Source: Betaproteobacteria bacterium
Lineage (GTDB): Bacteria; Pseudomonadota; Gammaproteobacteria; Burkholderiales; SG8-41
Reading direction: 5' to 3'
Assembly (NCBI GenBank): GCA_900299145.1
Contig: OMIN01000031.1
Coordinates: 249 to 64,248 of the forward strand
Length of the DNA stretch: 64,000 bases
The translations under genes were made by a program, and so were the position numbers. Below the pieces are notes generated by a model. It was not told where the DNA came from. It saw nothing but the letters and a program-made list of their open reading frames with translations, and did not search any database. Below are positions 44,214-59,738 of this stretch, in pieces. Each line of letters begins with the position of its first letter. Within the stretch, counting starts at the first letter, position 1.

Positions 44214-44309
44214 CACGGCGTCCTTTACTAGAAGGGCCGGCAAGCTCACAATTTGGCTCAATGCAATGTATGGGCCTCATCCTGTTAACTCTATGTACTG
44301 AACAGTTTT

Positions 44310-44798: not shown

Positions 44799-45219
44799 GG
44801 GCAATATAGCCCGTTACCTCCCCTATGCAGGGCGCAGGCAACTGCAATGCCAGATTGGCCATTCGTGCGTGGCGGCGCCACACAATAAAGTCAAAAACAA
44901 TGGTTACAAACAGGCATTGGCCGTTTGCGGTCGATTCCTGCATGCTTCGTAGCCCGGCGTTATAGTTATCAAGCCTTTACCCGAGAAACAGCTACCGATT
45001 TCCTGCACCATTGCTACTCTCCGCCCAAAGTAGGAATACCCAATACTCGCCGCTTTCAAGCATTGCGCATGTGCGTGAATGTTGACGCGGGCCTTTTCCG
45101 CGTATTATCACTGGTAAACCAAAGAGTATCGCTACTTTTTGTCACACTGCTCCAGCCAACATGCACAGCACGCAGGCGGACTGCCGCGGTACGGAATGTT
45201 GGCGGCCTCCAATCAGGAT

Positions 45220-45735
45220 ATGATCGTGACACCGGCAGAATCTGACTACCTTCTTCGCCTTGCGGCTCTATCCTTGTCGTTTGTTGGCTTTTCAGCTGTG
45301 GTAGTGACCTTGCGAGGTGCATTGGGTGGCGAGCTTTCTGATCGGCATCTTCGCCTTGTGCGCCTGTACATCGAAGGCGGTCTCCTGGTGACTGCCTTGG
45401 CCTTGGTACCTACCCTCCTAAATCTGCTCCATATCCCTGATACCATCACTTGGCTTCTGTCCAGCGCGGCCGCAGCGTCAATTTTCTCCTTCGTACTTTT
45501 GCTCCAATTCCGCCGCCGCCGTCTGGTTGAACCAGGCCCATTTCCCGTATGGGTCGTCGTCATTTACATCGTTTCGATCATCGCCGTAACGGGTCTCTGG
45601 CTAAACGTCATAGGAACTCTCTTTTCACCGAATTACGGCCCATACGCTGTTACCCTGACGTGGGCACTTTGCGTCTTTGGCTTCATTTTTGTACGGACCA
45701 TTGAGTTATTTCTGCACCGTGGGCCCCACCCCTAA
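45220..45735 (+). CDS. Hypothetical multi-pass membrane protein
   Basis: About 5 hydrophobic segments; AGGA RBS before ATG 45220. Confidence 0.65.
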   Translation: MIVTPAESDYLLRLAALSLSFVGFSAVVVTLRGALGGELSDRHLRLVRLYIEGGLLVTALALVPTLLNLLHIPDTITWLLSSAAAASIFSFVLLLQFRRRRLVEPGPFPVWVVVIYIVSIIAVTGLWLNVIGTLFSPNYGPYAVTLTWALCVFGFIFVRTIELFLHRGPHP

Positions 45736-45889
45736 GCGGGTCTTTCGCATGTGCTCCTGACATACGCGTTGTCAGCACCATCCTTCTCTACTTGCTGTCG
45801 TTAGGTGTCTCCACATGCGGCGCAATTAGCGACAGCACCTTGCATCCCCGGGCAAGCCATAAGGCAAGTAATGCAATGCATCCTGTCAC

Positions 45890-46085
45890 CGCTAAGTCAC
45901 ATCCGGCAAAAGCAGGTAGGAATAAATGCCCAAGGCCAACAAGTTTTCCTTGCAGCTATGCCGATACTTAACCCGCCATGATGTGCCCCATTTGCCTTCA
46001 TCAGCAGGTACATGCATTCACTATCAGTGGGCTTCAAAGCCGCGGATTTTGCTTCGCACCACGAACTTGAAGTCAGCCAAAGAAA
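45890..46085 (-). pseudogene. Decayed P4-like integrase N-terminal arm-binding domain
   Basis: Hand translation with one frameshift: MYLLMKANGAH-x-WRVKYRHSCKENLLALGIY, matching LYLLVKPNGSKYWRLKYR..GKEKLLALGVYP. Confidence 0.75.
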
Positions 46086-46248
46086 TTGGACGCTAGTCCC
46101 AGTGGCGGTATAAATGTACCCAAAAAAATAGTTCCACTTTTGACCGGAAGTTACAAGCCACTCCCGGATGACCGAGGGTACGAATTTAGAATTTTGATTC
46201 TAAAATCAGGGCCATAACGGACTGGAGTGAATTTCTAAAATATTAGAA

Positions 46249-46270
46249 TGGTGCCGGAACCGGCTTCGAA
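46249..46270 (-). other. att site: degenerate tRNA 3' end (T-arm + CCA), tRNA-Leu-like
   Basis: Minus strand TTCGAAGCCGGTTCCGGCACCA; no upstream tRNA body. Confidence 0.75.
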
Positions 46271-46324
46271 TTGATTCTGTAAGCTATTGAAATATATACT
46301 TATTATTAGGTTAAAACTTTAAAA

Positions 46325-46344
46325 ATACCATCACACATACCATC
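46325..46344. repeat. Putative integrase arm-type sites (ATACCATC-N4-ATACCATC)
   Basis: Direct repeat 46325-46332 and 46337-46344 about 55 bp inside the att fragment; IHF-like site between them and the core at 46280-46292. Confidence 0.65.
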
Positions 46345-46926
46345 CCCCCTCGATTGGTCGGTTCGAAGAATAAATCTATCCTTCGAACTGATCGTGAAAA
46401 ACGCAAAAATTGTTACTCGTCACATTAAGCTTGATGTCTAATTTTCGATATCGCGACATGACCTGTCAGCCACAGGGAAATTTTATGCGGCCGAACGCAA
46501 AGCGTTCAAGTGGCACCTATCGGCCACTCGTCGCTTGTTAGGGATGCTTATGAACAGGCTGCTTGTCGGACATAGCTGAATTTGAAACTGTGGCCAGCGT
46601 CGGTCGGCAATGCATCAGTTAGCTGCCTCCCAGCCCGAATACCAGCAGAACGTCAGCTCCCTGATCTGATGAATGCGCGCTCCCGCTACCTAATCCTGCC
46701 ATTCGTGGCACTTGTGCCGACGGCAGGATCGGGCTGCGAGGAATTGCACGGACATACGACCTGTAGCCAACCCCAATACCGAAAACGGTTTTCGAGGAGC
46801 CCGTAGCATTACAACGTCCCCTAGCCGATTTGCCATCCTATCCTCGCGGCTAGCTCAAGGGTTGTTTGACCGAGAATCCTCTTCCCTTAAACTTTACTCC
46901 CGCACCGTGCTAAGTACGAGCGCATA

Positions 46927-47625
46927 TTAAGTGGAGTCGCGCGGCCTGCGTGCCGCACCATGCGCCTCGTGAAGCATATGCAGGGTGATCTTGCGCACCT
47001 CGGCCTTGCTGGCAGCGATATGCGCCTTGAGCAATAGCGCGACTTCGACGGCCTTGCGCTGCATCAGGAAACGTAGGATCTTGGCGTGCTCATCGTAGGT
47101 GGCAGCGATGCGTTCGCTCTTGGTGAAGTCAAGTCGGCGGATGATGCGGATTTTTTCAGTGATGTCGCGATGGACGCGCGCCATTTCCTCGTTTCCGGTG
47201 GCTAGCACCAAGTCTTGATGGAATGCCTCGTCATACATCGATACCGTTTCGCCATCTGCGAGACGCTTGTCCTTTGGCACTAGCCATAAATTCTTGAGGG
47301 CGGAGAAATCAGGCACGTTTTGCGCGTCGCAGAGCTGCCGCACTGCGGCCAATTCGAGCACAATGCGCAGGTCGTATAGTTGCTCTAGGCGATTGAAGTC
47401 AATGGGTGGCACGTTCCAGCCGCTGCGGTAGGCGACCTTGAGGTAGCCTTCCTGCTCGAGCCGGTGAAGCGCTTGGCGGACTGGCGTGCGGCTTACTCCG
47501 AGCGCGGCAGCCAGTTCCCCCTCCGTCAGGCGGTCACCGGGTAAGATGCGAAAGTCGAAGATGTCATGCTTGATCCGCTCGTAAACGGATTCTGACAGTC
47601 GGGCAGGTGAATGAGTCGAGGTCAT
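46927..47625 (-). CDS. GntR/FadR-family transcriptional regulator
   Basis: HTH LGVSRTPVRQAL, FCD domain; ATGA overlap with upstream gene. Confidence 0.93.
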   Translation of the reverse strand: MTSTHSPARLSESVYERIKHDIFDFRILPGDRLTEGELAAALGVSRTPVRQALHRLEQEGYLKVAYRSGWNVPPIDFNRLEQLYDLRIVLELAAVRQLCDAQNVPDFSALKNLWLVPKDKRLADGETVSMYDEAFHQDLVLATGNEEMARVHRDITEKIRIIRRLDFTKSERIAATYDEHAKILRFLMQRKAVEVALLLKAHIAASKAEVRKITLHMLHEAHGAARRPRDST

Positions 47626-48008
47626 ACTGGAATTATGCTCACATGCGCAGCAACGATGTGCCAGCCTTGGGACAGGTGTACCCAAGGCTGGCTCTGGCGT
47701 CCGCATCGCCCAGCCTTGCGAACGAACTTGATATTGGCAGTGGTAAAGTTGATGCCAAACGTCGTGATTACGGTGTTTCGCGACTTTCGGGCAGGTCCTG
47801 TCAGGTTGCACGCGGTGCGGAAGGCGCGAATGGCCGCGATACCGCAAAGATGCTCGCCGTTGCCGTAGCGCAGCGAGAGTCGGCTGTGCCAAAGCAGTAC
47901 ATCGAGCACAGTAAGATCATTGCTTACCGGCGCCGCCTCATATCGGGCTAAGGTGGGTGTCACTTCGGCCATAACATCGGGAAGGTTAATCTCGCCTGCA
48001 TCGACCAT
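47622..48008 (-). CDS. AtzH/HpxZ-like protein (DUF3225), possibly degenerating
   Basis: INLPDVMAEV, RYG, AIRAFR, TVITTFG, GRQSQ, WHIVAAHVS. Confidence 0.82.
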   Translation of the reverse strand: MVDAGEINLPDVMAEVTPTLARYEAAPVSNDLTVLDVLLWHSRLSLRYGNGEHLCGIAAIRAFRTACNLTGPARKSRNTVITTFGINFTTANIKFVRKAGRCGRQSQPWVHLSQGWHIVAAHVSIIPV

Positions 48009-48016
48009 CGCACCGC

Positions 48017-49423
48017 TCAAGTTGTTGGCGTCGGCGCGACGACGGGGCGCACCGTAATGCCGGCCTTCTGCAGTGCCCACACCGCGCGCAGGCAAATGTC
48101 TTCGCGCCAAGGCGGCGCGATCAGCTGAACACCGATCGGCAGATGGCCTTCGGTGGGCCAGGTTGGCGCGACAGCGACCGGTAGGCCAATAAAGGAGATT
48201 GGTTGCGTCAACAGCCCCATGCTGGGCCGCGTCGGCAGCGAGCGGCCATTAATCACGATTAAATCCTGCCCGAGAAGCGTGGCGGTTACAGGCGTCGCCG
48301 GCGCGATCAATAGATCGATCTCTCGGAAAGCCTCCAGCACACGCCGGCGGAACAAACTTCGCATCCGCTGCGCCTGCTCCACCCACTGGGCCGGAACCAG
48401 AGCTCCGGCCAAGAGCCGTTCGCGCGAAAGCGGCTCGAAGTCTTCCGGCCGTTCGCGCAACGCCGCCATGTGCAGTGCACCGCCTTCAGACGCGGTGATA
48501 ACAAAGGCTGCGGCACGCGCTGCCGCCACTTCGGGGAGGACAACGTCGCCTAGACTGCCGAGCGCGCGTGCCGCGCGCTCGGACGCAGCACGCGCTACCG
48601 CGCTTGCCTGGTCGTCGAAGTATCCAGCCAAGCGCGCGATCCGCAGGCCGTCGAGCCCGCGTGCGAGCGATTCGGAAGTGGGTTCGATGTTGCGCTGGGC
48701 ACAGGCCGGATCACCTCTGTCGGGGCCTTGCAGCACATCGTAGGCGAGCGCGAGGTCGTCGGCCGAGGCGGCGAGCGGGCCGAGGTGGTCGAGACTATGT
48801 ACGAAGGGAAAACTTCCCGTACGTGGCAGTCGTCCATAGGTAGGTTTGAGGCCAAAGATGCCGCAGAGCGAGGCGGGGACGCGGATGGAACCGTTGGTGT
48901 CGGAACCGAGTGCAATGGGCACCAGCCCGGCGGCAACGGCCGCGCTGGAGCCGCCGGAAGAGCCACCAGCGGTCCGTGCCGAGTCATGCGGATTGCGCGT
49001 GTTCCCGTAGTGCGTGTTCTCGGTAGTGAATCCGTAGGCCAGCGCGTCCATGTTGAGCGCACCCGTGAGCAGACCGCCAGCGTTGCGCATACGCTGCACC
49101 AGCGGGGCATCTGCTGTTGCCGGTGCGTTTCTGGCCAGTAGCCGGGCGCCGGCGAGCGTGGTGATGCCCGCGATGTCAAACAGATTCTTGGCCGCATACG
49201 GCACGGCTGCCAGTCGCCCTGACCGCTCACCGCGCGCACGCGCCGCATCGAGCGCCTCTGCCTCGCGCAGCGCGCGTTCAGTCGTTATAGTCGTCCAGGC
49301 GTTGAGTTCGGGATTGCGGGCCGCGATGCGCTCCAGCGCCGCGACCGCGATCTCCCGAGCCGAGACCTCGCCGCAATCGAAGGCGGCGGCAATGCCTGTC
49401 GCAGTCTCCGGATTGGGGTTCAT
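48017..49423 (-). CDS. AtzE-family amidase (amidase-signature)
   Basis: AAKNLFD, GGSSGGS, GSDTNGSIRVP triad motifs; LPIGVQLIAPPWRED. Confidence 0.9.
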   Translation of the reverse strand: MNPNPETATGIAAAFDCGEVSAREIAVAALERIAARNPELNAWTTITTERALREAEALDAARARGERSGRLAAVPYAAKNLFDIAGITTLAGARLLARNAPATADAPLVQRMRNAGGLLTGALNMDALAYGFTTENTHYGNTRNPHDSARTAGGSSGGSSAAVAAGLVPIALGSDTNGSIRVPASLCGIFGLKPTYGRLPRTGSFPFVHSLDHLGPLAASADDLALAYDVLQGPDRGDPACAQRNIEPTSESLARGLDGLRIARLAGYFDDQASAVARAASERAARALGSLGDVVLPEVAAARAAAFVITASEGGALHMAALRERPEDFEPLSRERLLAGALVPAQWVEQAQRMRSLFRRRVLEAFREIDLLIAPATPVTATLLGQDLIVINGRSLPTRPSMGLLTQPISFIGLPVAVAPTWPTEGHLPIGVQLIAPPWREDICLRAVWALQKAGITVRPVVAPTPTT

Positions 49424-50556
49424 GGTCTGTATTGCGGCGCTGGCAGCGTGTCGCCCGGCAGTCGTGCTGCCTGGACCAGTCTTGCCATCTCGGCCACTCG
49501 ATTGAACTCACTTGTCAGTGCTGCTCGGCGCGCCGGGTCGACATGGATATTATGCATGGCCAGAGCGGCGTCGACGAAAGCCTCGCGCTCGGTTGGTCCC
49601 ACGAAATGGCAGGCAGCAGCGCGCCCGCGCGAGATTTCGCGCAGTGGCGGTGCCAAGGTATGACAACGCTCGACGCCGCGCGGACAGCGTCCGAACAGGC
49701 GGCAGCGGTGGGCGTCGGGATCGATCGGGCTTTGCGGATCACCGCCGATTAGCAGGTCGGCGTCTGTTGTCTGGCCCCCGGCCAAGCCCCCTGGCAGAGA
49801 GGCAATCAGCGCGCGGGTGTACGGGTGCAGCGGGCGCGCGAACACTTCGCGTGCCGGCCCACTTTCGACGATCTGGCCAAGGTACATCACCAGCACTCGA
49901 TCGCACAACAAACGTACCACGTTGAGATCGTGAGAGACGAAGAGGAAGCTCATCCCCATCTCGCGCTTGAGCCGGTCGAGCAGTTGCAGGATTACCGCTT
50001 GCACCGAGACGTCGAGTGCAGCGGTTGGCTCGTCGAGTACAAGCAGTCGTGGCTTGACGACAATGGCGCGGGCGATGCCGACGCGCGCCTTCTGTCCTCC
50101 TGAGAGCTGGTGCGGATAGCGGTCGAGCAGTTCGAAGGGCAGGCCGACATGCGTGGCGGTTTCCTCGACGGCGCGGTCGAGCGCCGATCCACTCATATCG
50201 GTGAGTAGTCTCGCCGACTCGGCAATAGTCTGGCGTGCCGTGTAGCGCGGGTCGAGGCTGTCAGTAGGATCCTGAAACACCATCTGGATCTCGCGCCGCA
50301 TCGGGTGGTCGGCCATGGCCCGCGCCGGAATCAGGCCGATGCCATGGCCGTGGAAGCGCACCTGGCCGTCGGTTAGATCAAGGGTGCGCGTCAGCAACCG
50401 CACCAGCGTCGATTTGCCGCAGCCGGACTCGCCGACGAGGCCGACAGTTTCGCCTGCCTCTATGTGGAAGTTGAGTCCATCGACTGCATGCAAGCGCTTC
50501 TTATCGCCGACTGGGAAGTGTTTCACGAGATCGATGGCTTCAATTAGCCGTTTCAT
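49420..50556 (-). CDS. Peptide-type ABC ATPase (DppF/OppF) fused to C-terminal AtzG/HpxX-like domain
   Basis: GESGCGKST, LSGGQ, LDEPT, HPYT, AACHF, then in frame EAFVDAALAMHNIHVDPARR...FNRVAEMARLV...LPAPQYRP. Confidence 0.85.
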   Translation of the reverse strand: MKRLIEAIDLVKHFPVGDKKRLHAVDGLNFHIEAGETVGLVGESGCGKSTLVRLLTRTLDLTDGQVRFHGHGIGLIPARAMADHPMRREIQMVFQDPTDSLDPRYTARQTIAESARLLTDMSGSALDRAVEETATHVGLPFELLDRYPHQLSGGQKARVGIARAIVVKPRLLVLDEPTAALDVSVQAVILQLLDRLKREMGMSFLFVSHDLNVVRLLCDRVLVMYLGQIVESGPAREVFARPLHPYTRALIASLPGGLAGGQTTDADLLIGGDPQSPIDPDAHRCRLFGRCPRGVERCHTLAPPLREISRGRAAACHFVGPTEREAFVDAALAMHNIHVDPARRAALTSEFNRVAEMARLVQAARLPGDTLPAPQYRP

Positions 50557-50663
50557 GACGTCTTCACCCCGACCTCCATGCAAGCAAGAGAAAGCCAGCG
50601 TGCTCGCTGCGTTCGAAGCTGTTGGCTGGCACGGCATTGATACGGCCTGAACGCGTGGCTCAT
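50553..50663 (-). CDS. Putative 36-aa ORF coupled at both ends by ATGA overlaps
   Basis: [36 protein letters not shown]; no recognisable homology. Confidence 0.3.
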   Translation of the reverse strand: MSHAFRPYQCRASQQLRTQRARWLSLACMEVGVKTS

Positions 50664-51637
50664 GCGCTTTTTCCCATACGCGGGTTGTGGCAGGCGACCA
50701 AATGATTGCCGGCGATGGCGATCTCCGGCAGCGCAGAGGCGCATGCTTCGGAGCGCTGCTCGCAGCGTTCCGAGAAGCGGCAGGGAGGCAGGTCGTTGCG
50801 GCGCAAGTCCGGTAGATTGCCGGGGATCGCGGCGAGATTTTCGAGCTGCTCTTGCCCAACCGGCGTCGCGAGCACCAGTTGGGCGGTGTAGGGGTGTGCA
50901 GACGATTTGAACAGGGATTCGGTTGGACCAATCTCCACGACATGGCCAGCATGCATCACCGCGATTCGGTCGCAGAACTCGCGGGCGAGGCCGAGGTCGT
51001 GAGTGATCAACAGCGTCGCCATCCCCTTTTCACGGCCTAGGTCGCGTATCAGCCGCATGATCGCCGCCTGCGTGGTGACGTCGAGTCCGGTTGTGGGCTC
51101 ATCGGCGATCAGCAACCTCGGCTGGCAAGCCAATGCGATGGCGATCATCACACGCTGGCACATGCCGCCGGAGAGCTCGAAGGGATAGGCGGAGTAGCGA
51201 CGTTCCGGATCGGGGATGCGCACTTCAGAGAGACACTCTATTGCGCGTTCCCGTGCCTTACTGCCGCGAAGATCAGTGTGCCGTAGCAGTACATCCTCGA
51301 TCTGGCGGCCGACTTGTCGAATCGGATTGAGTGCAACACGCGGGTTCTGGAAGATCATCGCCAGTTCGCGTCCACGAATGTTTTTCATCGCAGCACCGTT
51401 ATCAGCCAGCAGATCCTGGCCAGCGAAGCGGATGTCGCCTCCCGTTACGCGCGCTGCGGCGTCAAGGATGCCAAGCACCGCGAACGAGAGCACCGACTTG
51501 CCCGAGCCACTCTCGCCCACCAAACCGAGCGAGCCTCCCTCTAGCAATTCGAGGCTAACGTTCTCCAGCGCGCGCACCGTGCCGCCGCGGGTGCGGAATT
51601 CGAGCGAAAACTTGTGGATTTCGAGCAGGGAGTTCAC
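50660..51637 (-). CDS. Peptide-type ABC ATPase (DppD/OppD)
   Basis: [26 protein letters not shown]; GTG start overlapping permease stop. Confidence 0.92.
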
Positions 51638-52503
51638 GTCCGTCTCCGTGGATCGACCAAGTCGCGCAGCGAATCGCCTAGCAGGTTGAAGCAGAACACT
51701 GCCAGCATCAGCACCGCGCCGGGGAAGAGCGCGATCCACCATTCGCCTGAGACTATGTACTGCGCACCCTCGGCAACCATGATGCCCCATTCTGCAGCTG
51801 GAGGGCGCACGCCAAGACCGATAAAGGACAGGCCGGCGGCGTTGAGAATGGCCCAACCCATGTTGAGCGAAACCTGAACTGTCATCGGCGGAAGAATATT
51901 GGGAATGATGTGGTAGAACAGCAGTCGCGCTTCGCTGTTGCCGGCCAGTCGCGCCGCCTCGACGAACCCGGTGTTTCTTAGTACACCGGACTCGGCCCGC
52001 GCCACGCGGATGTAGAAGGGTAGATTGATGATGGCGGTGGCCAGCACGATGTTGGCGACGGTGTTGCCCATCGCGGCGACGATGCCCATGGCCAGCACGA
52101 ACAGAGGGAATGCCATGATGGTGTCGGACAGCCGGCCGACGATGCGGTCGGTCCAGCCGCCGAAGAAGCCGGCGCAGGCACCGGCTAGGCCGCCAATTAG
52201 CACCGAGATGCTTACTGCAGCCACCGCGATACCGAGGTCCAGCCGCGCTGCTACCACCACCCGCGACAGAATATCGCGGCCAAGCGCGTCGGTGCCGAAC
52301 CAATACTTTAACGAAGGAGGTGCAAGTGGTGTGCCGACGTTGGATGTCAATGCATCGAAGGGCGCAAGCCACGGCCCGACCAGCGCCAGCAGAACAAATG
52401 TGGCAAAGAGCAGGAAAGCGGCGAGCGACAGCGGGTTCTCGCCGACGACGTAGCGCAGCGCGGTCCAGCGCTTTTGCCACGGTGACATTACAGCTTCAGC
52501 CAT
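51634..52503 (-). CDS. Peptide-type ABC permease (DppC-like)
   Basis: FGTDALGRDILSR, EAARLAG loop, GLGVRPPAAEWG. Confidence 0.92.
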   Translation of the reverse strand: MAEAVMSPWQKRWTALRYVVGENPLSLAAFLLFATFVLLALVGPWLAPFDALTSNVGTPLAPPSLKYWFGTDALGRDILSRVVVAARLDLGIAVAAVSISVLIGGLAGACAGFFGGWTDRIVGRLSDTIMAFPLFVLAMGIVAAMGNTVANIVLATAIINLPFYIRVARAESGVLRNTGFVEAARLAGNSEARLLFYHIIPNILPPMTVQVSLNMGWAILNAAGLSFIGLGVRPPAAEWGIMVAEGAQYIVSGEWWIALFPGAVLMLAVFCFNLLGDSLRDLVDPRRRT

Positions 52504-53509
52504 CGACACGCATCCGAGGATCGACCAAGCCATAGGCAATGTCGATGGCGAGGTTGAGGAAGACGTAAAGCAGCGCCATGGTCAGCACGAAGCCCTGCAC
52601 CGCTGCATAGTCCGAGGCGACCAGCGCTTCGATGGCGAAGGTGCCGATGCCCGGCCAGGCGAAGACCTTTTCGACCAGCACGTTGGAGCCGAGCAGGAAG
52701 GAGAACACCATGCCAAGAGTGGTCATTACCGGCAGCAGTGCGTTGCGGAAGGCGTAGGTGAAGAGCACTGTGGTCGGCGCCAGACCCGCGGCGCGCGCGG
52801 TGCGAATGAAATCGGCTGACAGCACCCCGAGCATCGAGGCACGCGTCATGCGCGCCAGCGGCGCCAGCACGAACAGCGCCAAGGTGATGGTAGGCAGAAT
52901 CAGTTGTTTAATCGCGCCGACGAATGCGGCAAGATCGCGGGCAATCAGGCTGTCGATCAAGTAGAAGCCGGAAACATGCGGCGGCGTCGACAAATAGGGG
53001 TCGAGCCGCCCCAGCGGCGATGGTGCCCAGCCGAGCAGGAAATAGAAGAAGTACGCCAGCAGCAGGCCGGTGAAGAAGGTCGGCAAGGACACGCCGGCAG
53101 TAGTAATGCCACGGCAAAGGTGGTCGATCCACGAGCCGGGCCGCGTTGCAGCGAGTATGCCCAGTGGCACTGCAACGCTTACAGCAAGCAACAAAGCACA
53201 AAGTGTCAACTCGACCGAGGCGGGCAGACGCATGGCAATTTCAGTAAGCACGGGCTGGCCAGTGCCGAGCGATGTGCCCCAGTCCCCGCGCGTTAGGTCG
53301 CGCACGTAGACCACGAACTGTTCGGGCATAGATTTATCTAGCCCGAGTTTCTTGCGGATTTCCTGAACTGCCTCGGCAGTGCCCGCCGGGCCCGCGAAGA
53401 ACGCCGCCGGATCGCCCGGCAGGGCACGCGTCAGCAGGAAGGTGACGACGACCACCCCGATCAAGTTTGGGATCGAACCCACCAGCCGTTTGAGAATGGT
53501 CGATACCAT
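52496..53509 (-). CDS. Peptide-type ABC permease (DppB-like)
   Basis: PGDPA, GDWGTS, FIRTARAAGL, VEKVFAWPGIG. Confidence 0.93.
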   Translation of the reverse strand: MVSTILKRLVGSIPNLIGVVVVTFLLTRALPGDPAAFFAGPAGTAEAVQEIRKKLGLDKSMPEQFVVYVRDLTRGDWGTSLGTGQPVLTEIAMRLPASVELTLCALLLAVSVAVPLGILAATRPGSWIDHLCRGITTAGVSLPTFFTGLLLAYFFYFLLGWAPSPLGRLDPYLSTPPHVSGFYLIDSLIARDLAAFVGAIKQLILPTITLALFVLAPLARMTRASMLGVLSADFIRTARAAGLAPTTVLFTYAFRNALLPVMTTLGMVFSFLLGSNVLVEKVFAWPGIGTFAIEALVASDYAAVQGFVLTMALLYVFLNLAIDIAYGLVDPRMRVDG

Positions 53510-53515
53510 TGCCGA

Positions 53516-55120
53516 TTACTGCTTCGAAATTTGGCGATAGTCAGGCTGCAGATGAAACCAGTAGGTGTAGCCTTGGACGTTCTTCTGCATCGCTACGTCC
53601 ATCATCGGCTGTGCCACAGGGATGCGCGGTACGTCCCTGTAGGAGATGTCGATAAAGCCCTTTACCGACTGCGCATACTTTTTGCTGTCTCCCTCAAAGC
53701 GCGCTGACTCCACTAGCTTGTCTAGCTCGGCGTTCTGGTAGCTCATGGTGTTGAACACCGCGTTTTGCCCGTGATAAGTCCAGAAGTAGAAGTACTCGGG
53801 ATAGTTGAGCCAGCCGCCAAAGCGGTTGACGATCAGCGGCATGTCCTTCTTCAGCAGCGCAGCACGCCAGTTGGCGCCTGGCACTTTGTTGATCGTCACC
53901 TTGATGTTGATCTGTGCCAGTGACTCCTGGATCAGGATGGCCATGGGTTCTGACACCGTGCCTTGGCCAAGGTCGAACGAGAGCGTGGTCTCGAAGCCTG
54001 CTTCCTTGCCCGCCTCCTTCATCAGGGCCTTGGCCTTGGAGACGTCGGTCGCGTACGAGGTTGAAGTCGGCCATTCCGTGCCCGTTACCGGCTTCTTGGC
54101 GCCAAACAGCGGCACAGCGCGGCCATAGAGTGCGCTCTGCATGATCTTGTCGTAAGGCAGCGCGTAGGCTACGGCCTGGCGCACCTTGACGTTGTCGAAG
54201 GGCGGCTTGTTCGACAGCATGCCGACGTACCACATGGAGTTTTCAATCGGTACGCTAGCGACCTTGACATTGCCTTTCTCCAGCGACATCTCGGCAAAAT
54301 CCTTGGGCGGCATTTCGTAGGTCATGTCGATATCGCCCTTGGCGAGCAGAGCACGACGATTGCCGGCGGAGGGCACCTCGCGCTGGATGATCCGCTTGAT
54401 CTTCGGCAGCGGTCCGCCCTTCCATTCGTCGAAGCGCTCGTAGACGATCTCTTGGCCAGGTTTGTAGGAGGCGACCTTGTAGGCGCCACCGCCCGCAGTG
54501 TTGTTCTTGAGCCAGTTCGCGGCCCACGGGTCTTCCTTGGTGGCGTTCTTCTGCGCTAGCGTCGAGTTGTAGATCGAGGCCACCGGCACCGCCATGTCCG
54601 GCAGGGTCATCTTGTCCTTGCGCAGGAAGGTGACCCTGAAGGTGTGATCATCTACGGCTTCGAACTGCTCGGTTTTTTCCAGCGAACCGGCCTTCATCTG
54701 GAAGGTGGGGAAGCCGCCCATGGCGAGCGCACGGTCGTAGGACCACTTGACGTCCTTGGCCGTCACTGGCGTGCCGTCATGGAATTTCGCGCCCTTGTTG
54801 AGTTTAAAGGTCACTGACATGCCGTCCTTGGCGACCTGCCAGCTCTCGGCAAGTTCGGGCTCAAGCTTCGAGTAGTCATAGCTGACGGTACCATTGGGAA
54901 GCTTTTTCTTGCCGTAGGTCATCAGGCGATCGTAGGCGAGCCACGCCACGCCGTAAGCAGGGCGGTTGGCACCGACACCCTGGATGTCTAGCATGTTGGG
55001 ACCGGTCTCGTTGGCGACGATGAGCGTCTCCTTCTTTGCGTCCTGGGCGCAAGCGACGAGCGGCGCGCAGGCAAGCAACGCGGTGCTGACGATACTAAAG
55101 CACAACTGTTTGGCCATCAT
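53516..55120 (-). CDS. ABC substrate-binding protein, family 5
   Basis: Signal peptide; LAESW, FHDGTPVTAKDVKWS, GGGAYK. Confidence 0.92.
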   Translation of the reverse strand: MMAKQLCFSIVSTALLACAPLVACAQDAKKETLIVANETGPNMLDIQGVGANRPAYGVAWLAYDRLMTYGKKKLPNGTVSYDYSKLEPELAESWQVAKDGMSVTFKLNKGAKFHDGTPVTAKDVKWSYDRALAMGGFPTFQMKAGSLEKTEQFEAVDDHTFRVTFLRKDKMTLPDMAVPVASIYNSTLAQKNATKEDPWAANWLKNNTAGGGAYKVASYKPGQEIVYERFDEWKGGPLPKIKRIIQREVPSAGNRRALLAKGDIDMTYEMPPKDFAEMSLEKGNVKVASVPIENSMWYVGMLSNKPPFDNVKVRQAVAYALPYDKIMQSALYGRAVPLFGAKKPVTGTEWPTSTSYATDVSKAKALMKEAGKEAGFETTLSFDLGQGTVSEPMAILIQESLAQINIKVTINKVPGANWRAALLKKDMPLIVNRFGGWLNYPEYFYFWTYHGQNAVFNTMSYQNAELDKLVESARFEGDSKKYAQSVKGFIDISYRDVPRIPVAQPMMDVAMQKNVQGYTYWFHLQPDYRQISKQ

Positions 55121-55132
55121 GTTGAGTCCTCT

Positions 55133-56977
55133 TTAGGCGGTGGTGATGCGGGTTGAAGAAGTTTGAGCGGCGATGTAAGCACGCCAGCCGCCGAAATGCG
55201 TGATGTCCTCGGCGCCTTCCGTGGCGACCGCTTCGCAGACAAACCCTTTGACGTTGGTGCCATCCTCGAGCTGCAAGGTGCCGATGCCGAGCGGTGCGGG
55301 AATTGCGGCTACAAAGCTGCCGAAGTGGTATGCCGGCAGTTCCCAGAGTTCGACCTCTACTCTCACACCTGTGTCCGGGGCCACGCGCACCAAGCCCGGC
55401 TTGGGCGGCGTGGTGCCTGACAGGGCATAGAAGCGATAGTGCGGTGCCGTGCGCGTGGCGCGTAACAGACGCGCGCCTCGTTCGACGAGTTGCCAGTTGA
55501 GCGGCATCCCGGAAAGATGCGCTCCGACCACAGCGACCGTGATCGTTTCCCCGTGCTGCGGTAAGGGCGGCAGCGGCGTTCTACGATGCGGCGGAAGTCC
55601 CACGCCGCTTGCGAGGCGGCGATGCAGTGTCGACTCGATACGCCGTGCGAACTCAGCTAGGCGATGGTCACCGCCACCCGGAGCGATCAAGGTGATGCCT
55701 GCGGGGAGGCCATCAATGCGGAAAGGTCCGGGAAGCGCCAGCGCGCTCATGTGGAGCAGGTTGACGAAATTGGTGTAGATGCCCAAGCGGCTGTTGGCTG
55801 TGATCGGCTCGGCGGCGATCTGGGCTCGGGTGTATATCGTGGGTGCCGTGGGGACGAGAAGCAGATCGATATCGTTGAACACTGCCTCGGCCATACGCTT
55901 GCCGGCTTCGAGCCGATACAAAGCGGCGAATGTGTCGGCAGCACTCTTGCCGTCGGCCTTGCCCATCACCGTGCGCACCGTCGGGTCCATGGCTTCGGCG
56001 TGCCGATCATAGAAGTCGGCGATGGCGAGACGCCGTTCCGCCACCCACGGGCCGTCGTACAGAAGCGCGGCGATTTCAGCGAATGGTGCGAGTGGTACGT
56101 CGGTAAAACTCAGCAACGTGTGTTGCTTTAGCGCGTGCAAGGCCGCCGAGAAGGCACCGGCAGCTATTGAGTCGCCGCAGAAATCGAGTGGAGCCGGGAT
56201 GCCAATGCGCAGCTCTTTCGTTAGCGTCCCTAAACTTGCGACTTCATGCGAATAGGGATCGGCTTGGTCGCGACCGGCAAGTACTGACAGCACTTGCCAA
56301 CCCTCGGCGACGGATTGTGCAAATATCGAAACGCAGTCGAGGCTGCGACAGGCGGGAAACACACCTGAGGTGCTCACCAATCCCGGCGTCGGCTTGATTC
56401 CAACTAGGTTGCAGAAACCGGCCGGCACTCGACCTGATCCTGCTGTGTCGGTTCCTAATGCAAAGGCAACCAGACCCTGCGCCACGGCCGCCGCCGAACC
56501 TGAACTCGATCCACCGGACACGTAGTCAGAATTGAATGGGTTCGGTACCTCGCCGTATGGCGAGCGAGTGCCTACCAAGCCAGTAGCGAACTGGTCGAGA
56601 TTTGTCTTGCCTACCACTATCGCGCCGGAGGCCTCGAGCCTTTCGATCACGGTCGCGGACCGCTTCGGGGTATAGGCGAACGCAGGACAGGCACAGGTCG
56701 TGGGTATGCTCGCTATGTCGATGTTGTCCTTGACGGCATATGGAACACCAAACAGCGGCAGGACATCCAACACACCCGGGTCAACGACGAATCGGTCGGT
56801 CAGCGCGGTGGCGCGCGCGAGTAGCGCCGCCTCATCGACAAGGGTAATGAAGATGGGCGCGACACCGCAGGTGCGAATGCGCGCGAGAATTTCTCGCACA
56901 AGGTCGACGGGAGTAAACTCGCGTCGACGGTAGCCATTGTTGATGGCATCGACGGTTAGTGCAGCGGGGAGTTGCAT
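55133..56977 (-). CDS. atzF: Allophanate hydrolase
   Basis: AVKDNID, KTNLDQFATGLVGTRSPYG, GTDTAGSGRVPA, C-domain VVGAHLSGMPLN. Confidence 0.95.
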   Translation of the reverse strand: MQLPAALTVDAINNGYRRREFTPVDLVREILARIRTCGVAPIFITLVDEAALLARATALTDRFVVDPGVLDVLPLFGVPYAVKDNIDIASIPTTCACPAFAYTPKRSATVIERLEASGAIVVGKTNLDQFATGLVGTRSPYGEVPNPFNSDYVSGGSSSGSAAAVAQGLVAFALGTDTAGSGRVPAGFCNLVGIKPTPGLVSTSGVFPACRSLDCVSIFAQSVAEGWQVLSVLAGRDQADPYSHEVASLGTLTKELRIGIPAPLDFCGDSIAAGAFSAALHALKQHTLLSFTDVPLAPFAEIAALLYDGPWVAERRLAIADFYDRHAEAMDPTVRTVMGKADGKSAADTFAALYRLEAGKRMAEAVFNDIDLLLVPTAPTIYTRAQIAAEPITANSRLGIYTNFVNLLHMSALALPGPFRIDGLPAGITLIAPGGGDHRLAEFARRIESTLHRRLASGVGLPPHRRTPLPPLPQHGETITVAVVGAHLSGMPLNWQLVERGARLLRATRTAPHYRFYALSGTTPPKPGLVRVAPDTGVRVEVELWELPAYHFGSFVAAIPAPLGIGTLQLEDGTNVKGFVCEAVATEGAEDITHFGGWRAYIAAQTSSTRITTA

Positions 56978-56990
56978 CGACTTCGCTCAT

Positions 56991-57014
56991 CTTGGATACA
57001 AGATAGGATGCAAG
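56991..57014. promoter_or_regulatory. Putative GntR/FadR operator pair
   Basis: Near-palindrome CTTGGATACAAG (56991-57002) plus degenerate copy ATAGGATGCAAG between promoter and atzF start. Confidence 0.5.
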
Positions 57015-57016
57015 AA

Positions 57017-57032
57017 AGCAGAAAACGTGCCA
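57017..57032 (-). promoter_or_regulatory. Sigma54 (-24/-12) promoter for atzF operon
   Basis: Minus strand TGGCACGTTTTCTGCT, GG-N10-GC spacing exact, one mismatch to TGGCAC-N5-TTGCW. Confidence 0.7.
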
Positions 57033-57118
57033 TCTCGTTTGCTTAATACGAACTTGCTGATTCAAAGGGGGAACCGTGTAATCGCCTACGGTTGAATCGG
57101 CTGCCGGAGATCGTGTCG

Positions 57119-57156
57119 CGCACGGACGCGGTGCATTGGCGAAACAACTTGGTGCA
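57119..57156. promoter_or_regulatory. Putative NtrC enhancer sites
   Basis: Minus strand TGCACCGCGTCCGTGCG (57119-57135) and TGCACCAAGTTGTTTCG half site (57140-57156), about 90-125 bp upstream of the sigma54 box. Confidence 0.55.
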
Positions 57157-57191
57157 CTTTTGAGCTATCCCGCTTTTCGTAGACGGTTAAA

Positions 57192-58055
57192 TTAAGCACT
57201 TAGCCATTCTCGCTCAACCTGCTCGGGTGTGCGATAGCCGAGCGATTGATGAATGCGTTTGCGGTTGTAAAACGCCTCGATGTAATCAAAGATGACAGCA
57301 CGGGCCTCATCCCGCGTGCGGAAATCGCAGTGGTGTATCACCTCGTTTTTAAGATTCGAGAAGAAGCTCTCCGCCACCGCGTTGTCCTGCGGCACCTTGC
57401 GCCCATTCATACTCGCACATACGCCATAGTCGGCAAGCAGTTGCCGGTATGCGCCGGTGTTGTATTGCGGCCCCCGGTCGGTGTGGTGAATCAAGCCCGC
57501 TGCCGGCTCGCGGTGCTCCAGCGCCATTTTCAGTGCGCCGACGTGTAATTGCTGTCCCGGCTGCTGATCCATCGCCCAGCCCACCACTTTGCGTGAGTAC
57601 AGATCGAGCAACACCGCCAGATGCAGCCAGCCCTCGCGCGTGCGAATGAACGTCATGTCACCAGCCCACACCCGGTTTGGCTGGGGAGCATGGAAACGGC
57701 CCAGCAGCAAGTCCGGCGCGGGCGGCGCTGTTTTGTGGTGCTCTACGGTGAGCCGTTGCCGGCTGTGGCGATTCGCTTCGATGTGGTGTTCTCGCCGTAA
57801 CCGGGCTACCCGATGCTTGCCGCAAGGTATGCCACGGGCGTTGAGCGTGCGCCAGGTCTTCACGCTGCCGTAGGCCTCGCGGTGTTCCACGTGCACGCGC
57901 CGGATTTCAATCGTCAGTTCACGATCCGCGCTGGCCCGTGCGCTTTCGGGACGGGTGAGCCACGCATGGTAGCCGCTGCGGGAAACCCGCAGCAGTTCAC
58001 ACAACCGGGCAATTGCATACCGGCTTCGTTGCTCACGAATGAAGGCATACTTCAC
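57192..58055 (-). CDS. IS3 transposase OrfB (DDE)
   Basis: WAGDMT, HHTDRG, AVAESFF, YNRKRIH. Confidence 0.93.
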   Translation of the reverse strand: MKYAFIREQRSRYAIARLCELLRVSRSGYHAWLTRPESARASADRELTIEIRRVHVEHREAYGSVKTWRTLNARGIPCGKHRVARLRREHHIEANRHSRQRLTVEHHKTAPPAPDLLLGRFHAPQPNRVWAGDMTFIRTREGWLHLAVLLDLYSRKVVGWAMDQQPGQQLHVGALKMALEHREPAAGLIHHTDRGPQYNTGAYRQLLADYGVCASMNGRKVPQDNAVAESFFSNLKNEVIHHCDFRTRDEARAVIFDYIEAFYNRKRIHQSLGYRTPEQVEREWLSA

Positions 58056-58381
58056 GGCAGTTCCTTCGCAAAGTATGCGGCTGCCTTTTTTAAAATGTCG
58101 CGCTCCTCGGTCACGCGTTTGAGCTCGCGCCGTAGCCGATCCACTTCGCTGTAGTCTGACAGCCGCTTGGCGCCCGGGCCGCGAAAGGCGGCTGCCTCGC
58201 CCTTTGAACCCAATTGTGCCTGCCACTTATACAGTTGGTTGCGGCGAATGCCCAATTCCAGCGCTAATTGCGCCGCCGGCTTTTGCCCCGCTTCCAGCAG
58301 CTTTACCGCCTCCAGCTTGAATTCCTTGGCAAACCGAGCGCGTCTACGCCCCGCATTGACCTTTTCCAGTTCCTTGCCCAT
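58052..58381 (-). CDS. IS3 transposase OrfA
   Basis: FAKEFKLEAV...LKRVTEERDILKKAAAYFAKE. Confidence 0.93.
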   Translation of the reverse strand: MGKELEKVNAGRRRARFAKEFKLEAVKLLEAGQKPAAQLALELGIRRNQLYKWQAQLGSKGEAAAFRGPGAKRLSDYSEVDRLRRELKRVTEERDILKKAAAYFAKELP

Positions 58382-58441
58382 TCGACACCTCCACAGGTAT
58401 TGTCTAACTTCAAAAGTGTCTACGAAAGCTGGGATAGCTCA

Positions 58442-59505
58442 CTACTGCCAATTGGTTTTCCGGCGTCGTTTGAGAATGGCACAATTCCGCCGCGCTCAGA
58501 CTCCTGGCCTCACATACGCGGGGATGTGAAAGTGAGGCAACGAAAACTAGAGCAACCGGTGAAAGTGTTCAGCGGGTGGAGCTCTAAGGAGTTAGTAGAG
58601 AAATTTATCGATAACAAGTGCCAAACTATCATCGACGGTAAGGGCCAGGAAACCGTTTTCGAGATTACATCAAGCGGCACAATCGAAGCAGTTAAAGTTA
58701 GGGGCGCCCCCAGCCACGTAATTTCGACACTTACGGGATTCGGGGGGCCGCAAAAGGCAACCGCCGACCTTCTGGAATTGGGCGTTCCATTTGATGACTA
58801 CCCGAAGCCTGTCCAATTAATCAAATATCTGACGTCTATGATTAGGGGGAGTGACTTCCTAGCTCTCGATTTTTTCTCTGGATCAGCGACAACCGCACAT
58901 GCAATTCTGCAGCTAAACGCTGAAGATGGCGGGAGTCGAAAGTTTGTCATGGTGCAACTTCCGGAGAGGTGCGCCGACGAGACGGCGGCGTTCAAAGCAG
59001 GGTATCAAACCATCGCAGAAATTGGTAAAGACAGAATTCGTCGTGTTGGACAGAAATTTATTGCAAGTGGTCAAAAGATCGATGTCGGCTTTCGTGTTCT
59101 AAAGATTAATTCGTCAAATATGGCCAACATCTACTACGCCCCGACGCACTGGACAGAGCTAACCTCGATCTGTTCGTCGATAACATCAAGCCCGACCGTA
59201 CGCCGGAGGACCTGCTGTTCCAGGTGATGCTGGACTGGGGCGTCGATCTGGCACTGCCGATTGCCAAAGCGGGGATTCAGGGCAAGGACGTGTACTTCGT
59301 CGATGGCCAAGACACGAACATGGCACTCGCGGCCTGTTTTGACGCGCACGGAGGTGTCGATGAAGCTTTTGTCAAAGAACTGGCCAGGCGCCAACCCCTG
59401 TGCGTGGTGTTCCGCGATGCCGGTTTCAAGGACAGCGCGGTCAAGATCAACGTGGAGCAGATTTTCAAGCTGTTGTCGCCCGCCACCGATGTGAAGTGCA
59501 TTTAG
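58442..59505 (+). pseudogene. mod: Type III R-M methyltransferase (mod), 5' truncated by IS and frameshifted
   Basis: YPKPVQLI, LDFFSGSATTAHA, KFVMVQLPE present; DPPY half missing; 1-bp deletion at 59139-59142. Confidence 0.9.
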
Positions 59506-59515
59506 GGAGAGCGGC

Positions 59516-59738
59516 ATGCGTGAATCCGGATTCCCCGCCCTGCCTGCCGGATATGCGGACTGGCTGGCCGACCTTAAGCAGCGCATTCATGCCGCGCACA
59601 GCGTGCCACGCTCGCGGTTAACCGGGAGCTGGTGTTGTTGTATTGGCAAATCGGCCGGGGCATTCTAGAGCGGAATTGCAGACGGACTTGCCGCGAATTG
59701 AAAGATATCGAGCGCGAGTTGCAGGGCGTGGATGAATA
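59516..59738 (+). pseudogene. YhcG/DUF1016 (PD-(D/E)XK nuclease) remnant with large internal deletion
   Basis: YADWLADLKQRIHAA.QRATLAVNRELVLLYWQIG..ILER joined directly to C-terminal ELQTDLPRIE/DIERELQ; frameshifts. Confidence 0.8.

Follow-up and report, generated by a model that had tools for sequence, protein, structure and literature searches.

An allophanate hydrolase operon with an embedded family-5 ABC importer, an ATPase-AtzG fusion and no known entry enzyme

What does a bacterium take up when it encodes an importer among the enzymes that form and hydrolyse allophanate, and none of the known enzymes that open such a route? Triuret, biuret and cyanuric acid occur as urea fertiliser impurities, s-triazine herbicide breakdown products and uric acid oxidation products, and to our knowledge their uptake by bacteria is essentially unstudied. 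The question is raised by an operon at positions 56977-46927 on the minus strand of the window (the whole stretch of 64,000 nucleotides analysed here), which encodes AtzF, a family-5 ABC importer, AtzE, AtzH and a GntR regulator. An earlier note had described it as island-borne and devoid of any known entry enzyme, and had proposed that the AtzE/G amidase directly attacks an imported, as yet unnamed nitrogen-rich ureide.

Operon structure, control and genomic setting

All genes that the earlier note had named were found where it placed them, on the minus strand, and none of the nine reading frames, which are translationally coupled, is disrupted. The operon starts with atzF (55133..56977; TIGR02713, PF21986), an allophanate hydrolase gene with an amidase domain and an AH_C domain. 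The importer genes follow: a periplasmic substrate-binding protein of family 5 (SBP_bac_5) with a signal peptide (53516..55120; PF00496), a DppB-like permease (52496..53509; PF00528 and PF19300), a DppC-like permease whose start codon is uncertain (about 51634..52503; PF00528 and PF12911), a DppD-like ATPase (50660..51637; PF00005 and PF08352), whose GTG start overlaps the permease stop, and a DppF-like ATPase (49420..50556; PF00005, PF08352 and PF13318). The separate atzG gene that had been claimed is instead the in-frame C-terminal part of this last ORF. Its stop codon overlaps the ATG of atzE (ATGA), which encodes an AtzE-family amidase (48017..49423; NF006631). The AtzH/HpxZ-like product of atzH (47622..48011; PF11533, NF033625) is a DUF3225/NTF2-like decarboxylating amidohydrolase of the 1,3-dicarboxyurea type, and the gene for the GntR/FCD-family regulator (46927..47625; PF00392 and PF07729) has its ATG overlapping the atzH stop.

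The three enzymes score above the cut-offs of their families. AtzF matched TIGR02713 with 781 bits (cut-off 511) and the AH_C model PF21986 with 182 bits, and it aligned over its full length to the Granulibacter allophanate hydrolase 4gyr (E-value of 6e-176). It keeps the full allophanate hydrolase architecture, including the AH_C domain, and conserves the LLYxGPWVAER Tyr and Arg as well as the GAHL His, which we take to be the allophanate-binding residues. AtzE reached 689 bits for NF006631 (cut-off 461) and 660 bits for TIGR02715 (cut-off 426). Its alignment to AtzE of Pseudomonas sp. ADP (6c62, E-value of 4.5e-162) contains the KNLFD, GGSSGGS and GSDTNGSIRVPAS motifs and the Ser-cisSer-Lys signature of the AtzE family. 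Six AtzE substitutions are specific to the clade, and E122A and F123L among them fall in the NMDEF motif; from an alignment alone they cannot be read as a sign of a changed substrate. AtzH matched PF11533 with 143 bits and NF033625 with 146 bits (cut-off 135), and its alignment to ADP AtzH (6bjt) shows conservation of Arg73 and of Tyr22 and Arg46 (ADP numbering), the latter two being catalytic (PMC6219798).

The promoter had been placed directly before atzF, and we indeed identified a sigma-54 (-24/-12) element there, TGGCACGTTTTCTGCT (57017..57032, minus strand; TGGCAC-N5-CTGCT), in which GG-N10-GC is invariant in nine loci. No sigma-70-like site was found upstream of atzF on the operon's strand. 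Between the promoter and the atzF start lies a predicted palindromic GntR-type operator, TCTTGTATCCAAGA (56990..57003, minus strand). This operator occurs once in the 5.5-Mb genome; its core CTTGTATNCAAG is invariant in nine loci, and in locus L019 the palindrome is perfect. By eye, we also noted weak, putative NtrC-like enhancer half-sites (TGCACC-N5-CGTGCG; 57118..57135, minus strand), with comparable TGCACC/GGTGC pairs 100-170 bp upstream of the promoter in loci L009-L014, L016, L019 and L020. The conserved sigma-54 promoter and predicted GntR operator point to control by nitrogen limitation, and sigma-54/NtrC-type control would fit nitrogen scavenging.

The upstream border of the operon is formed by an IS3-family insertion sequence (orfA/orfB; 57154..58448, minus strand; rve and HTH_Tnp_1 domains) with 31-nt terminal inverted repeats, present as a single copy in the assembly. 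It lies ~120 bp upstream of the promoter and may have removed part of the enhancer. The flanks have GC fractions of 0.51 and 0.555 versus 0.617 for the module, and a truncated methylase and a type III restriction gene adjoin the operon region. Of 20 species in the same genus, only two carry a clear ortholog (69-71% identity), and a third hit, with 47% identity, probably represents a paralog. An ortholog from another family is closer, at 85% identity. Together, these features lend indirect support to the island-borne origin proposed in the earlier note. A self-contained nitrogen-scavenging module acquired horizontally is the best explanation of the operon.

Entry enzymes in this genome and in relatives

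The earlier note had suggested looking for atzD and biuH elsewhere in the genome. Across the 5.5-Mb assembly, which is 99.7% complete, there was no match to the AtzD model TIGR02714, which had matches in 11 of 43 other carrier genomes. For urea carboxylase, TIGR02712 matched biotin carboxylase paralogs only. Because this enzyme is absent here and present in just 4 of the 43 carrier genomes, we rejected it as the partner of AtzF. There are only two isochorismatase-family (PF00857) genes; neither has the catalytic Cys, and their scores of 76 and 64 bits stay far below the BiuH cut-off of 370, so that the genome holds no BiuH or TrtA either. Genes of the GGT family are found on other contigs and none on that of the operon.

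To place this in context, we collected orthologs of the binding protein from 222 stretches and analysed 80 species loci among them (66-87% identity). Four other species keep both the layout without an entry enzyme and the fusion of AtzG to the ATPase, at 54-89% protein identity across the genes, and have no BiuH or AtzD. The absence of a known entry enzyme thus holds for the clade of the window. It does not hold elsewhere: a BMP-type importer adjoins the module in 29 of the 80 loci, and where the fetched stretch reaches far enough these also show formamidase and/or biuH (14 loci) and a trtA-like gene (five loci). This set of neighbours corresponds to the published triuret/biuret locus (PMC7948467; PMC12625717). 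Of 44 carrier genomes, 24 encode a true BiuH; by our own reading of contig coordinates, about 7 kb or less separates it from the module in roughly 17 of these. A BiuH paralog beside the module had its best match to Herbaspirillum TrtA (6xix, 292 bits), and another adjacent hydrolase gene matched R. leguminosarum BiuH (417 bits). On alphaproteobacterial plasmids, too, binding-protein homologs are encoded in one operon with hydrolases of the BiuH/TrtA family (278-341 bits), with AtzG/AtzE and with atzF. AtzD never adjoins the module in the carrier genomes, and clustering of the flanking ORFs of the 80 loci revealed no family common across clades beyond the BMP importer, formamidase and BiuH/TrtA-like block.

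Most loci carry AtzE (61 of 70 evaluable). Nine loci keep AtzF, the importer and GntR, with an identical promoter and operator, and lack AtzG, AtzE and AtzH. For six of these, the genome is without any AtzE. In three of the six genomes, among them that of the isolate Azoarcus sp. TTM-91, BiuH, AtzD and urea carboxylase are missing as well, and there AtzF alone seems to be enough for the importer ligand. Inspection by eye of the flanks of three AtzE-less loci (L020, L017 and L011) showed unrelated genes only (autotransporter, NhaA, LysR, cytochrome bd and acyl-CoA enzymes). Three AtzE-less loci, L011, L014 and L020, group with the fused loci in a single clade of the AtzF tree (support 100/99), in which L011 branches from within the fused set. 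The simplest explanation is therefore that AtzE was lost secondarily and that its absence does not mark the ancestral core.

Importer, fusion and the compound taken up

The importer is of the Dpp/Opp type of family 5, with an SBP_bac_5 binding protein (PF00496, 289 bits), two BPD_transp_1 permeases and two ATPases with an oligo_HPY C-terminal region. Peptide specificity is not implied by this, as all scores against equivalog models were far under the cut-offs. The nearest solved structures are remote and include the agropinic-acid binding protein AgaA (6hlx, E-value of 6e-39) as well as peptide binders; with best matches at E ~1e-39 or worse, they are too distant to assign a ligand. In 64 of the 69 species loci that could be evaluated, atzF immediately precedes the gene for the binding protein, which upholds the view that the importer is dedicated to the pathway and led us to reject peptide transport. 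Since relatives link the module to BMP importers, formamidase, biuH, trtA-like and other BiuH/TrtA-family genes, the substrate probably belongs to the known triuret/biuret/carboxybiuret family rather than being an unrelated ureide. The earlier proposal is supported in part. A dedicated Dpp-type importer that travels with allophanate-forming enzymes across Beta- and Alphaproteobacteria is a candidate transporter for this class of compounds, although an ordinary biuret or triuret ligand would make this a useful but incremental annotation.

The AtzG-like domain makes up the C-terminal ~57 residues of the DppF-like ATPase ORF (about 49593-49423), in frame. PF13318 (DUF4089) matched residues 328-376 with an E-value of 1.3e-4 and 22.7 bits, under the 24-bit cut-off, and phmmer aligned the fused tail to residues 4-60 of ADP AtzG (E-value of 0.002). 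No stop codon separates the ATPase and AtzG parts in the window or in loci L009, L010, L012 and L013, so the fusion is conserved in five species. Fused proteins form only 9 clusters among 5.8 billion proteins, and most other loci have a free-standing AtzG gene at the equivalent position upstream of atzE. Such a fusion would be expected if AtzE/G acts on the imported compound, and we infer that in this small Rhodocyclales-like clade AtzE is docked on the importer through the AtzG domain. Direct attack of AtzE/G on an imported ureide, as proposed earlier, fits the fusion; that AtzE/G is an obligatory first step is made less likely by the nine loci without AtzG/E/H and the six genomes without AtzE.

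The reading that we favour, at somewhat better than an even chance, is that through this operon the cell imports a linear urea-condensation compound (triuret, biuret or carboxybiuret type) and mineralises it completely. Under nitrogen limitation the sigma-54 promoter would fire, probably upon activation by NtrC, and in the presence of the substrate or of an acid from the pathway the local GntR/FCD repressor would leave its palindromic operator. The family-5 importer would take up a small linear H2N-CO-NH-CO-X compound, with triuret, biuret, 1-carboxybiuret and allophanate as candidates; the last two are unstable in water and hence odd nutrients for import. Judging from characterised relatives, AtzE, held by the AtzG domain on the DppF-like ATPase, would deamidate the terminal carbamoyl group, AtzH would convert the N-carboxylated product (1,3-dicarboxyurea type) to allophanate, and AtzF would convert allophanate to ammonia and CO2. 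For AtzE, the tree is informative: ADP AtzE nests inside a Comamonadaceae clade of module AtzEs (support 100/100), which makes the module AtzEs the closest relatives of this characterised 1-carboxybiuret hydrolase. By such phylogenetic bracketing, AtzE/G of the operon may likewise hydrolyse 1-carboxybiuret to 1,3-dicarboxyurea.

A bolder, tentative version makes the importer and the first enzyme one machine, in which AtzE, docked via the fused AtzG, itself performs the entry step on a neutral polyuret (triuret/biuret) that has been imported; we think this possible, at well below an even chance. ADP AtzEG was reported not to hydrolyse biuret (PMC6219798). If true, allophanate would be reached with none of TrtA, BiuH and AtzD, and, in a rarely seen arrangement, an ABC importer would be joined physically to the hydrolase acting on what it brings in. 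The fusion-bearing version without an entry enzyme is a test bed both for the natural substrate of AtzE/G beyond AtzD- or TrtA-derived carboxybiuret and for the docking of a catabolic enzyme on an ABC importer.

Several other explanations were weighed against uptake and mineralisation of a urea-condensation compound. AtzF, the importer and GntR might be the core, with allophanate or another amide cleaved directly by AtzF (malonamate, oxamate) as the ligand and AtzG/E/H as an accessory set that recovers carboxybiuret produced by other enzymes. AtzF is the most constant neighbour of the binding-protein gene, and the nine loci reduced to this core retain an unchanged promoter and operator, six of them in genomes without AtzE, of which three are also devoid of BiuH, AtzD and urea carboxylase. 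Carboxylates are, moreover, typical ligands of GntR/FCD regulators and family-5 binding proteins. Still, we consider this unlikely: secondary loss is the simplest account of these loci, the fusion would be hard to account for if the imported compound bypassed AtzE, the genome studied here would offer AtzG/E/H no source of carboxybiuret, and allophanate shares the instability mentioned above. Quite unlikely, too, is a purine-derived oxalurate route as in Klebsiella HpxXYZ, in which AtzE/G/H would turn imported oxalurate into oxamate and the role of HpxW would fall to an AtzF-like amidase. In its favour, oxalurate is a stable anion, recent literature (PMC12625717) regards HpxY as an oxalurate amidohydrolase, and the AtzH-like protein exceeds the cut-off of the NCBI HpxZ model (146 versus 135 bits). 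The hint that HpxZ gave towards oxalurate has to be dropped, however, because that model does not discriminate: NCBI labels the true AtzH of pADP-1 as HpxZ as well. The nesting of ADP AtzE in the module's clade, the complete allophanate hydrolase architecture of AtzF with its presumed allophanate-binding residues, the trtA, biuH and formamidase neighbours in relatives, where allantoate and purine genes are missing, and the absence of a GGT/HpxW gene from the contig also speak against this route.

We give little credence to the idea that the operon is a stranded remnant, which arrived horizontally without trtA, biuH or atzD and has no usable substrate in its present host. The lack of an entry enzyme in the genome, the IS3 element and low-GC DNA at the flanks, and the closeness of the insertion sequence to the enhancer region would agree with it; nine intact, coupled reading frames, a conserved promoter and operator, and a layout and fusion maintained in four further species that have neither BiuH nor AtzD would not. 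Least probable, with a very slight chance, is cyanuric acid or another ring compound that is opened by an unrecognised enzyme not homologous to AtzD and then passes through the AtzE/G/H/F steps. The pADP-1 pathway for cyanuric acid uses exactly these four downstream enzymes, and AtzD-family genes do occur elsewhere in 11 of the 43 carrier genomes, but they never adjoin the module, and in the clade of the window no conserved extra gene of unknown function lies in or beside it.

Relation to known systems

The layout is not a new architecture. Esquirol et al. 2018 (PLoS One, PMC6219798) described beta-proteobacterial clusters of allophanate hydrolase, ABC transporter and atzG-atzE-atzH, which match the operon in gene content, order and strand: the allophanate hydrolase gene leads, and the ABC genes precede atzG-atzE-atzH. 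The present copy differs in that AtzG is fused to the transporter ATPase, in the lack of a downstream second ABC importer or amidase block, and in its position next to an IS3 element in a Rhodocyclales-like genome; in addition, a predicted promoter and operator and the GntR regulator are now defined. What sets this copy apart is the absence of a known first enzyme together with the AtzG-ATPase fusion.

The triuret/biuret loci of Herbaspirillum sp. BH-1 and nitrifiers (trtA, trtB, biuH, atzF and bmpA-nupABC; PMC7948467, PMC12625717) share the allophanate hydrolase end, nitrogen scavenging and the link to an importer, and the module adjoins exactly such genes in many Burkholderiales. Unlike these loci, the genome of the window has no TrtA or BiuH and its operon a Dpp-type importer of family 5 instead of a BMP-type one, and AtzE/G/H stands in for the TrtB-BiuH branch. 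The hpxWXYZ oxalurate genes of Klebsiella and other Enterobacteriaceae include a homologous AtzG/AtzE/AtzH-type trio (HpxX/Y/Z) without AtzD, whereas here the trio has no GGT-family HpxW partner beside it and no allantoate genes nearby, and comes with an allophanate hydrolase and an importer.

Homologs of AtzG, AtzE, AtzH and AtzF of the cyanuric acid operon atzDGEHF on pADP-1 of Pseudomonas sp. ADP are all present. Here, however, AtzD is missing, the importer is embedded in the operon, atzF is the first and not the last gene, and the regulator is of the GntR and not the LysR type (AtzR). An origin of the pADP-1 atzF from the same module was unsupported, as ADP AtzF sits on a long unresolved branch apart from the module AtzFs. 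The pADP-1 AtzG/E genes fall inside the module's Comamonadaceae clade, which supports an origin before herbicide use.

Gene content and the AtzG fusion

The minus-strand operon at 56977-46927 reads as nine intact, closely packed frames. An allophanate hydrolase, AtzF (56977-55133; TIGR02713, 781 bits against a cut-off of 511; AH_C domain, 182 bits), is followed by a family-5 ABC importer assigned by profile search, which comprises a binding protein with a signal peptide (55120-53516), DppB- and DppC-like permeases (53509-52496 and about 52503-51634) and DppD- and DppF-like ATPases (51637-50660 and 50556-49420). Next come an AtzE-family amidase (49423-48017; NF006631, 689 bits, cut-off 461) and, again from profile searches, an AtzH/HpxZ-like NTF2 protein (48011-47622) and a GntR/FCD regulator (47625-46927). 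Several junctions overlap at ATGA or GTGA, making the genes translationally coupled. This is the gene set proposed in the earlier note, save that atzG is not a separate gene.

Judged by their residues, the enzymes look catalytically competent. The window's AtzF aligns end to end with the Granulibacter allophanate hydrolase, a characterised enzyme, C-terminal domain included (E-value of 6e-176), and retains the LLYxGPWVAER Tyr and Arg as well as the His of GAHL, which we take to be substrate-binding and C-domain catalytic residues. AtzE aligns with its counterpart from Pseudomonas sp. ADP (hereafter ADP; PDB 6c62, E-value of 4.5e-162) and carries the amidase-signature motifs. In AtzH, alignment to ADP AtzH (6bjt) showed conservation of Tyr22, Arg46 and Arg73, and mutagenesis of the ADP protein found Tyr22 and Arg46 to be required (PMC6219798). 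We dropped the HpxZ profile match as a sign of an oxalurate route, since the AtzH of the ADP atrazine plasmid pADP-1, encoded in its atzDGEHF cyanuric acid operon, is itself annotated at NCBI as 'oxalurate catabolism protein HpxZ'.

The frame of the DppF-like ATPase continues without a stop past the normal ATPase end into about 57 further residues. These match an AtzG-like Pfam family weakly, under the family cut-off, and align with residues 4-60 of the crystallised ADP AtzG. The free-standing atzG that had been proposed is therefore refuted, the AtzG-like part being an in-frame C-terminal tail of the ATPase. The same fusion occurs in four relatives' loci (L009, L010, L012 and L013), which together with the window we call the fused loci. 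Among 5.8 billion proteins it was found in only nine clusters at 90% identity, each sharing 79% identity or more with the window's protein; the relatives that come after them lack the fusion and measure 319-335 residues. Beyond the window's clade, almost all loci encode AtzG separately, in a gene of 60-75 codons. Because AtzG and AtzE of ADP form an obligate complex (PMC6219798), the fusion should, by analogy, hold AtzE at the transporter. Such docking would fit a direct attack of AtzE on imported cargo.

Layouts and ancestry of the module

Clusters of atzG-atzE-atzH without atzD have been described as common in Proteobacteria, with additional ABC transporter and amidase genes downstream (Esquirol et al. 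2018; PMC6219798). Our scan for the binding protein, with one genome per species, returned 222 stretches with relatives, of which the best 80 species loci were analysed. These 80 loci (66-87% identity for the binding protein) come mostly from Rhodocyclales and Burkholderiales. AtzF lies directly upstream of the binding-protein gene on the same strand in 64 of the 69 loci with enough upstream sequence. The window's gene order (layout A) was found in 31 loci, while AtzG-AtzE-AtzH stands between binding protein and permeases in 29 (layout B) and is inverted in one. Nine loci consist of AtzF, importer and GntR without AtzG, AtzE or AtzH (layout C). In a variant from another relative (L053, 15305-19311), AtzG-AtzE precede a binding protein of NMT1 type, a hydrolase of the isochorismatase family that contains Cys and scores 133 bits with the BiuH model, and a cupin; neither AtzH nor AtzF was detected in this locus.

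In a maximum-likelihood tree, ADP AtzE is nested within a Comamonadaceae layout-A clade (15 rows, 100/100), and the window's AtzE groups with those of the four other fused loci in a clade of five rows (100/100). From this nesting, atzG-atzE of pADP-1 appears to have been drawn from a module of this kind, and phylogenetic bracketing makes it likely that the module AtzEs are carboxybiuret-type hydrolases. ADP AtzF falls outside the module AtzF grouping, on a long branch, so the pADP-1 operon would be a mosaic. The AtzF tree also places three layout-C loci (L011, L014 and L020) in one clade with the fused loci (100/99), L011 within the fused set; given this placement, their lack of AtzG, AtzE and AtzH is most simply read as secondary loss.

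All five fused-clade AtzEs have Ala-Leu at window residues 127-128 (ADP 122-123), in the NMDEF motif. Among the remaining module AtzEs, 49 of 50 carry Glu at the first of these positions and 45 of 50 carry Tyr at the second, and ADP has Glu-Phe. Four further AtzE substitutions are specific to the fused clade. On pADP-1 (L106, 97954-108285), a BMP-family binding-protein gene lies a few kb from atzDGEHF, an arrangement reminiscent of the BMP importer next to Comamonadaceae modules.

Promoter and genomic setting

The promoter expected directly before atzF was borne out. Two elements there are invariant across nine loci: a sigma-54 element of the form GG-N10-GC, TGGCACGTTTTCTGCT (57017-57032, minus strand), and, just downstream, the palindrome CTTGTATNCAAG (56990-57003, minus strand), with TCTTGTATCCAAGA as the candidate GntR operator. 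The palindrome is perfect in locus L019 and occurs once in the own genome. By eye, sequences of TGCACC/GGTGC type, resembling NtrC sites, stand 100-170 bp further upstream in most loci, and no sigma-70-like promoter was found upstream of atzF on the operon strand. The simplest reading of these sites is that the operon would be activated under nitrogen limitation together with substrate-specific relief of GntR repression.

An IS3-family element (orfA/orfB, 57154-58448), single-copy in the assembly and with 31-nt terminal inverted repeats, lies upstream of the sigma-54 promoter, with a gap of about 120 bp between them. As its outer end contributes part of a TGCACC motif, the insertion may have encroached on the enhancer. 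Just past it, at 58450-62986, are the remains of a truncated N6/N4 DNA methylase (about 58.8-59.2 kb), apparently deprived of its N-terminal part by the IS or the operon, and a type III restriction enzyme res subunit of 1040 aa that includes an endonuclease domain (59864-62986). On the other side, a 3-kb low-GC stretch (43851-46926) separates type II secretion genes from the gntR end, its sole convincing ORF being a DUF3124 gene (44310-44798). The module has a GC content of 0.617, the 3 kb to its left 0.51 and the right side 0.555, for a genome average of 0.598. ARAGORN detected no tRNA genes in the window. In the genus, only two of 20 other species have a clear binding-protein ortholog (69-71% identity), while a genome from a different family encodes one of 85% identity. 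With the IS3 element, GC content and patchy orthologs, horizontal acquisition of the operon is likely; the limits of the island postulated in the earlier note cannot be set, as the contig ends inside it.

Entry enzymes and the candidate substrate

The claim that no known entry enzyme is present held when extended from the window to the own assembly (5.5 Mb, 158 contigs, estimated 99.7% complete). The AtzD/TrzD model, for cyanuric acid hydrolases, had zero matches; the same search was positive in 11 of 43 other module-carrying genomes, so it does work. No urea carboxylase was found in the genome, where only biotin carboxylase paralogs match. For the biuret and triuret hydrolases BiuH and TrtA, the genome offers two isochorismatase-family genes; both lack the catalytic cysteine and, at 76 and 64 bits, stay below the 370 bits that the NCBI BiuH model requires. 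Neither atzD nor biuH thus lies elsewhere in this genome, and TrtA/BiuH are absent genome-wide throughout the window's clade (own genome and G050-G053). One of the two genes (contig C55:1913-2470) has an in-frame TGA where its paralog on C142 has Trp, the likely mark of either a pseudogene or a sequencing error. GGT-family genes are absent from the operon's contig and present on others.

Among relatives, BiuH exceeded the model cut-off in 24 of 44 carrier genomes, and in roughly 17 of these biuH and the module are no more than about 7 kb apart (contig coordinates read by eye). A BMP-type ABC importer immediately adjoins the module in 29 of the 80 loci (tblastn); the fetched stretches include a formamidase and/or BiuH in 14 of these and a second BiuH-like paralog in five. 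The neighbouring BiuH scores 432 bits, and its best match among solved structures is R. leguminosarum BiuH. For the paralog it is 6xix/6xj4 (292 bits, versus 205 for BiuH), which we take to be Herbaspirillum TrtA. This Burkholderiales neighbour set equals the published triuret/biuret locus of trtA, trtB, biuH, atzF and bmpA-nupABC (PMC7948467; PMC12625717). Alphaproteobacterial plasmids carry more distant binding-protein homologs (43-57% identity): GntR, binding proteins, permeases, ATPase, cysteine hydrolase and then atzF in Terrarubrum; binding protein, two BiuH/TrtA-family hydrolases (329 and 341 bits), permeases, ATPases, amidase, AtzG and AtzE on Salipiger pTPRO1; and GntR, atzF, binding protein, permeases, ATPase, AtzG and AtzE in Roseomonas mucosa. 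The importer family is thus repeatedly linked to enzymes that form allophanate from linear polyurets or use it up, a context that, by analogy, points to triuret/biuret chemistry.

These data support a module in which nitrogen limitation would induce the operon, the importer would take up a small linear urea-condensation compound, and AtzE/G, AtzH and AtzF would process it in turn to ammonia and CO2. In many Burkholderiales, neighbouring TrtA and BiuH would supply carboxybiuret and allophanate; the window's clade combines their genome-wide absence with AtzG fused to the importer ATPase. Against a simple story, ADP AtzEG is reported to be inactive on biuret (PMC6219798), and the instability of carboxybiuret and allophanate counts against simple import. 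Three genomes, G042, G043 and that of the isolate Azoarcus sp. TTM-91, retain only AtzF, importer and GntR, with AtzE, BiuH, AtzD and urea carboxylase all absent, which suggests that the importer can also deliver something handled by AtzF alone. The earlier note's reading, that AtzE/G directly attacks an imported N-rich ureide, is partly supported by the missing entry enzyme and by the joining of importer and AtzE/G, but the chemistry is probably that of the known triuret/biuret/carboxybiuret compounds. The proposed uncharacterised route has an already published architecture; its entry-enzyme-free, transporter-fused version is a new variant and poses a clear experimental question.

The formamidase in the neighbourhood passes the AmiF equivalog model (564 bits) and has a conserved place, with the BMP-type importer on one side and biuH on the other, in L033/L100, L028, L034, L064, L070 and other loci.
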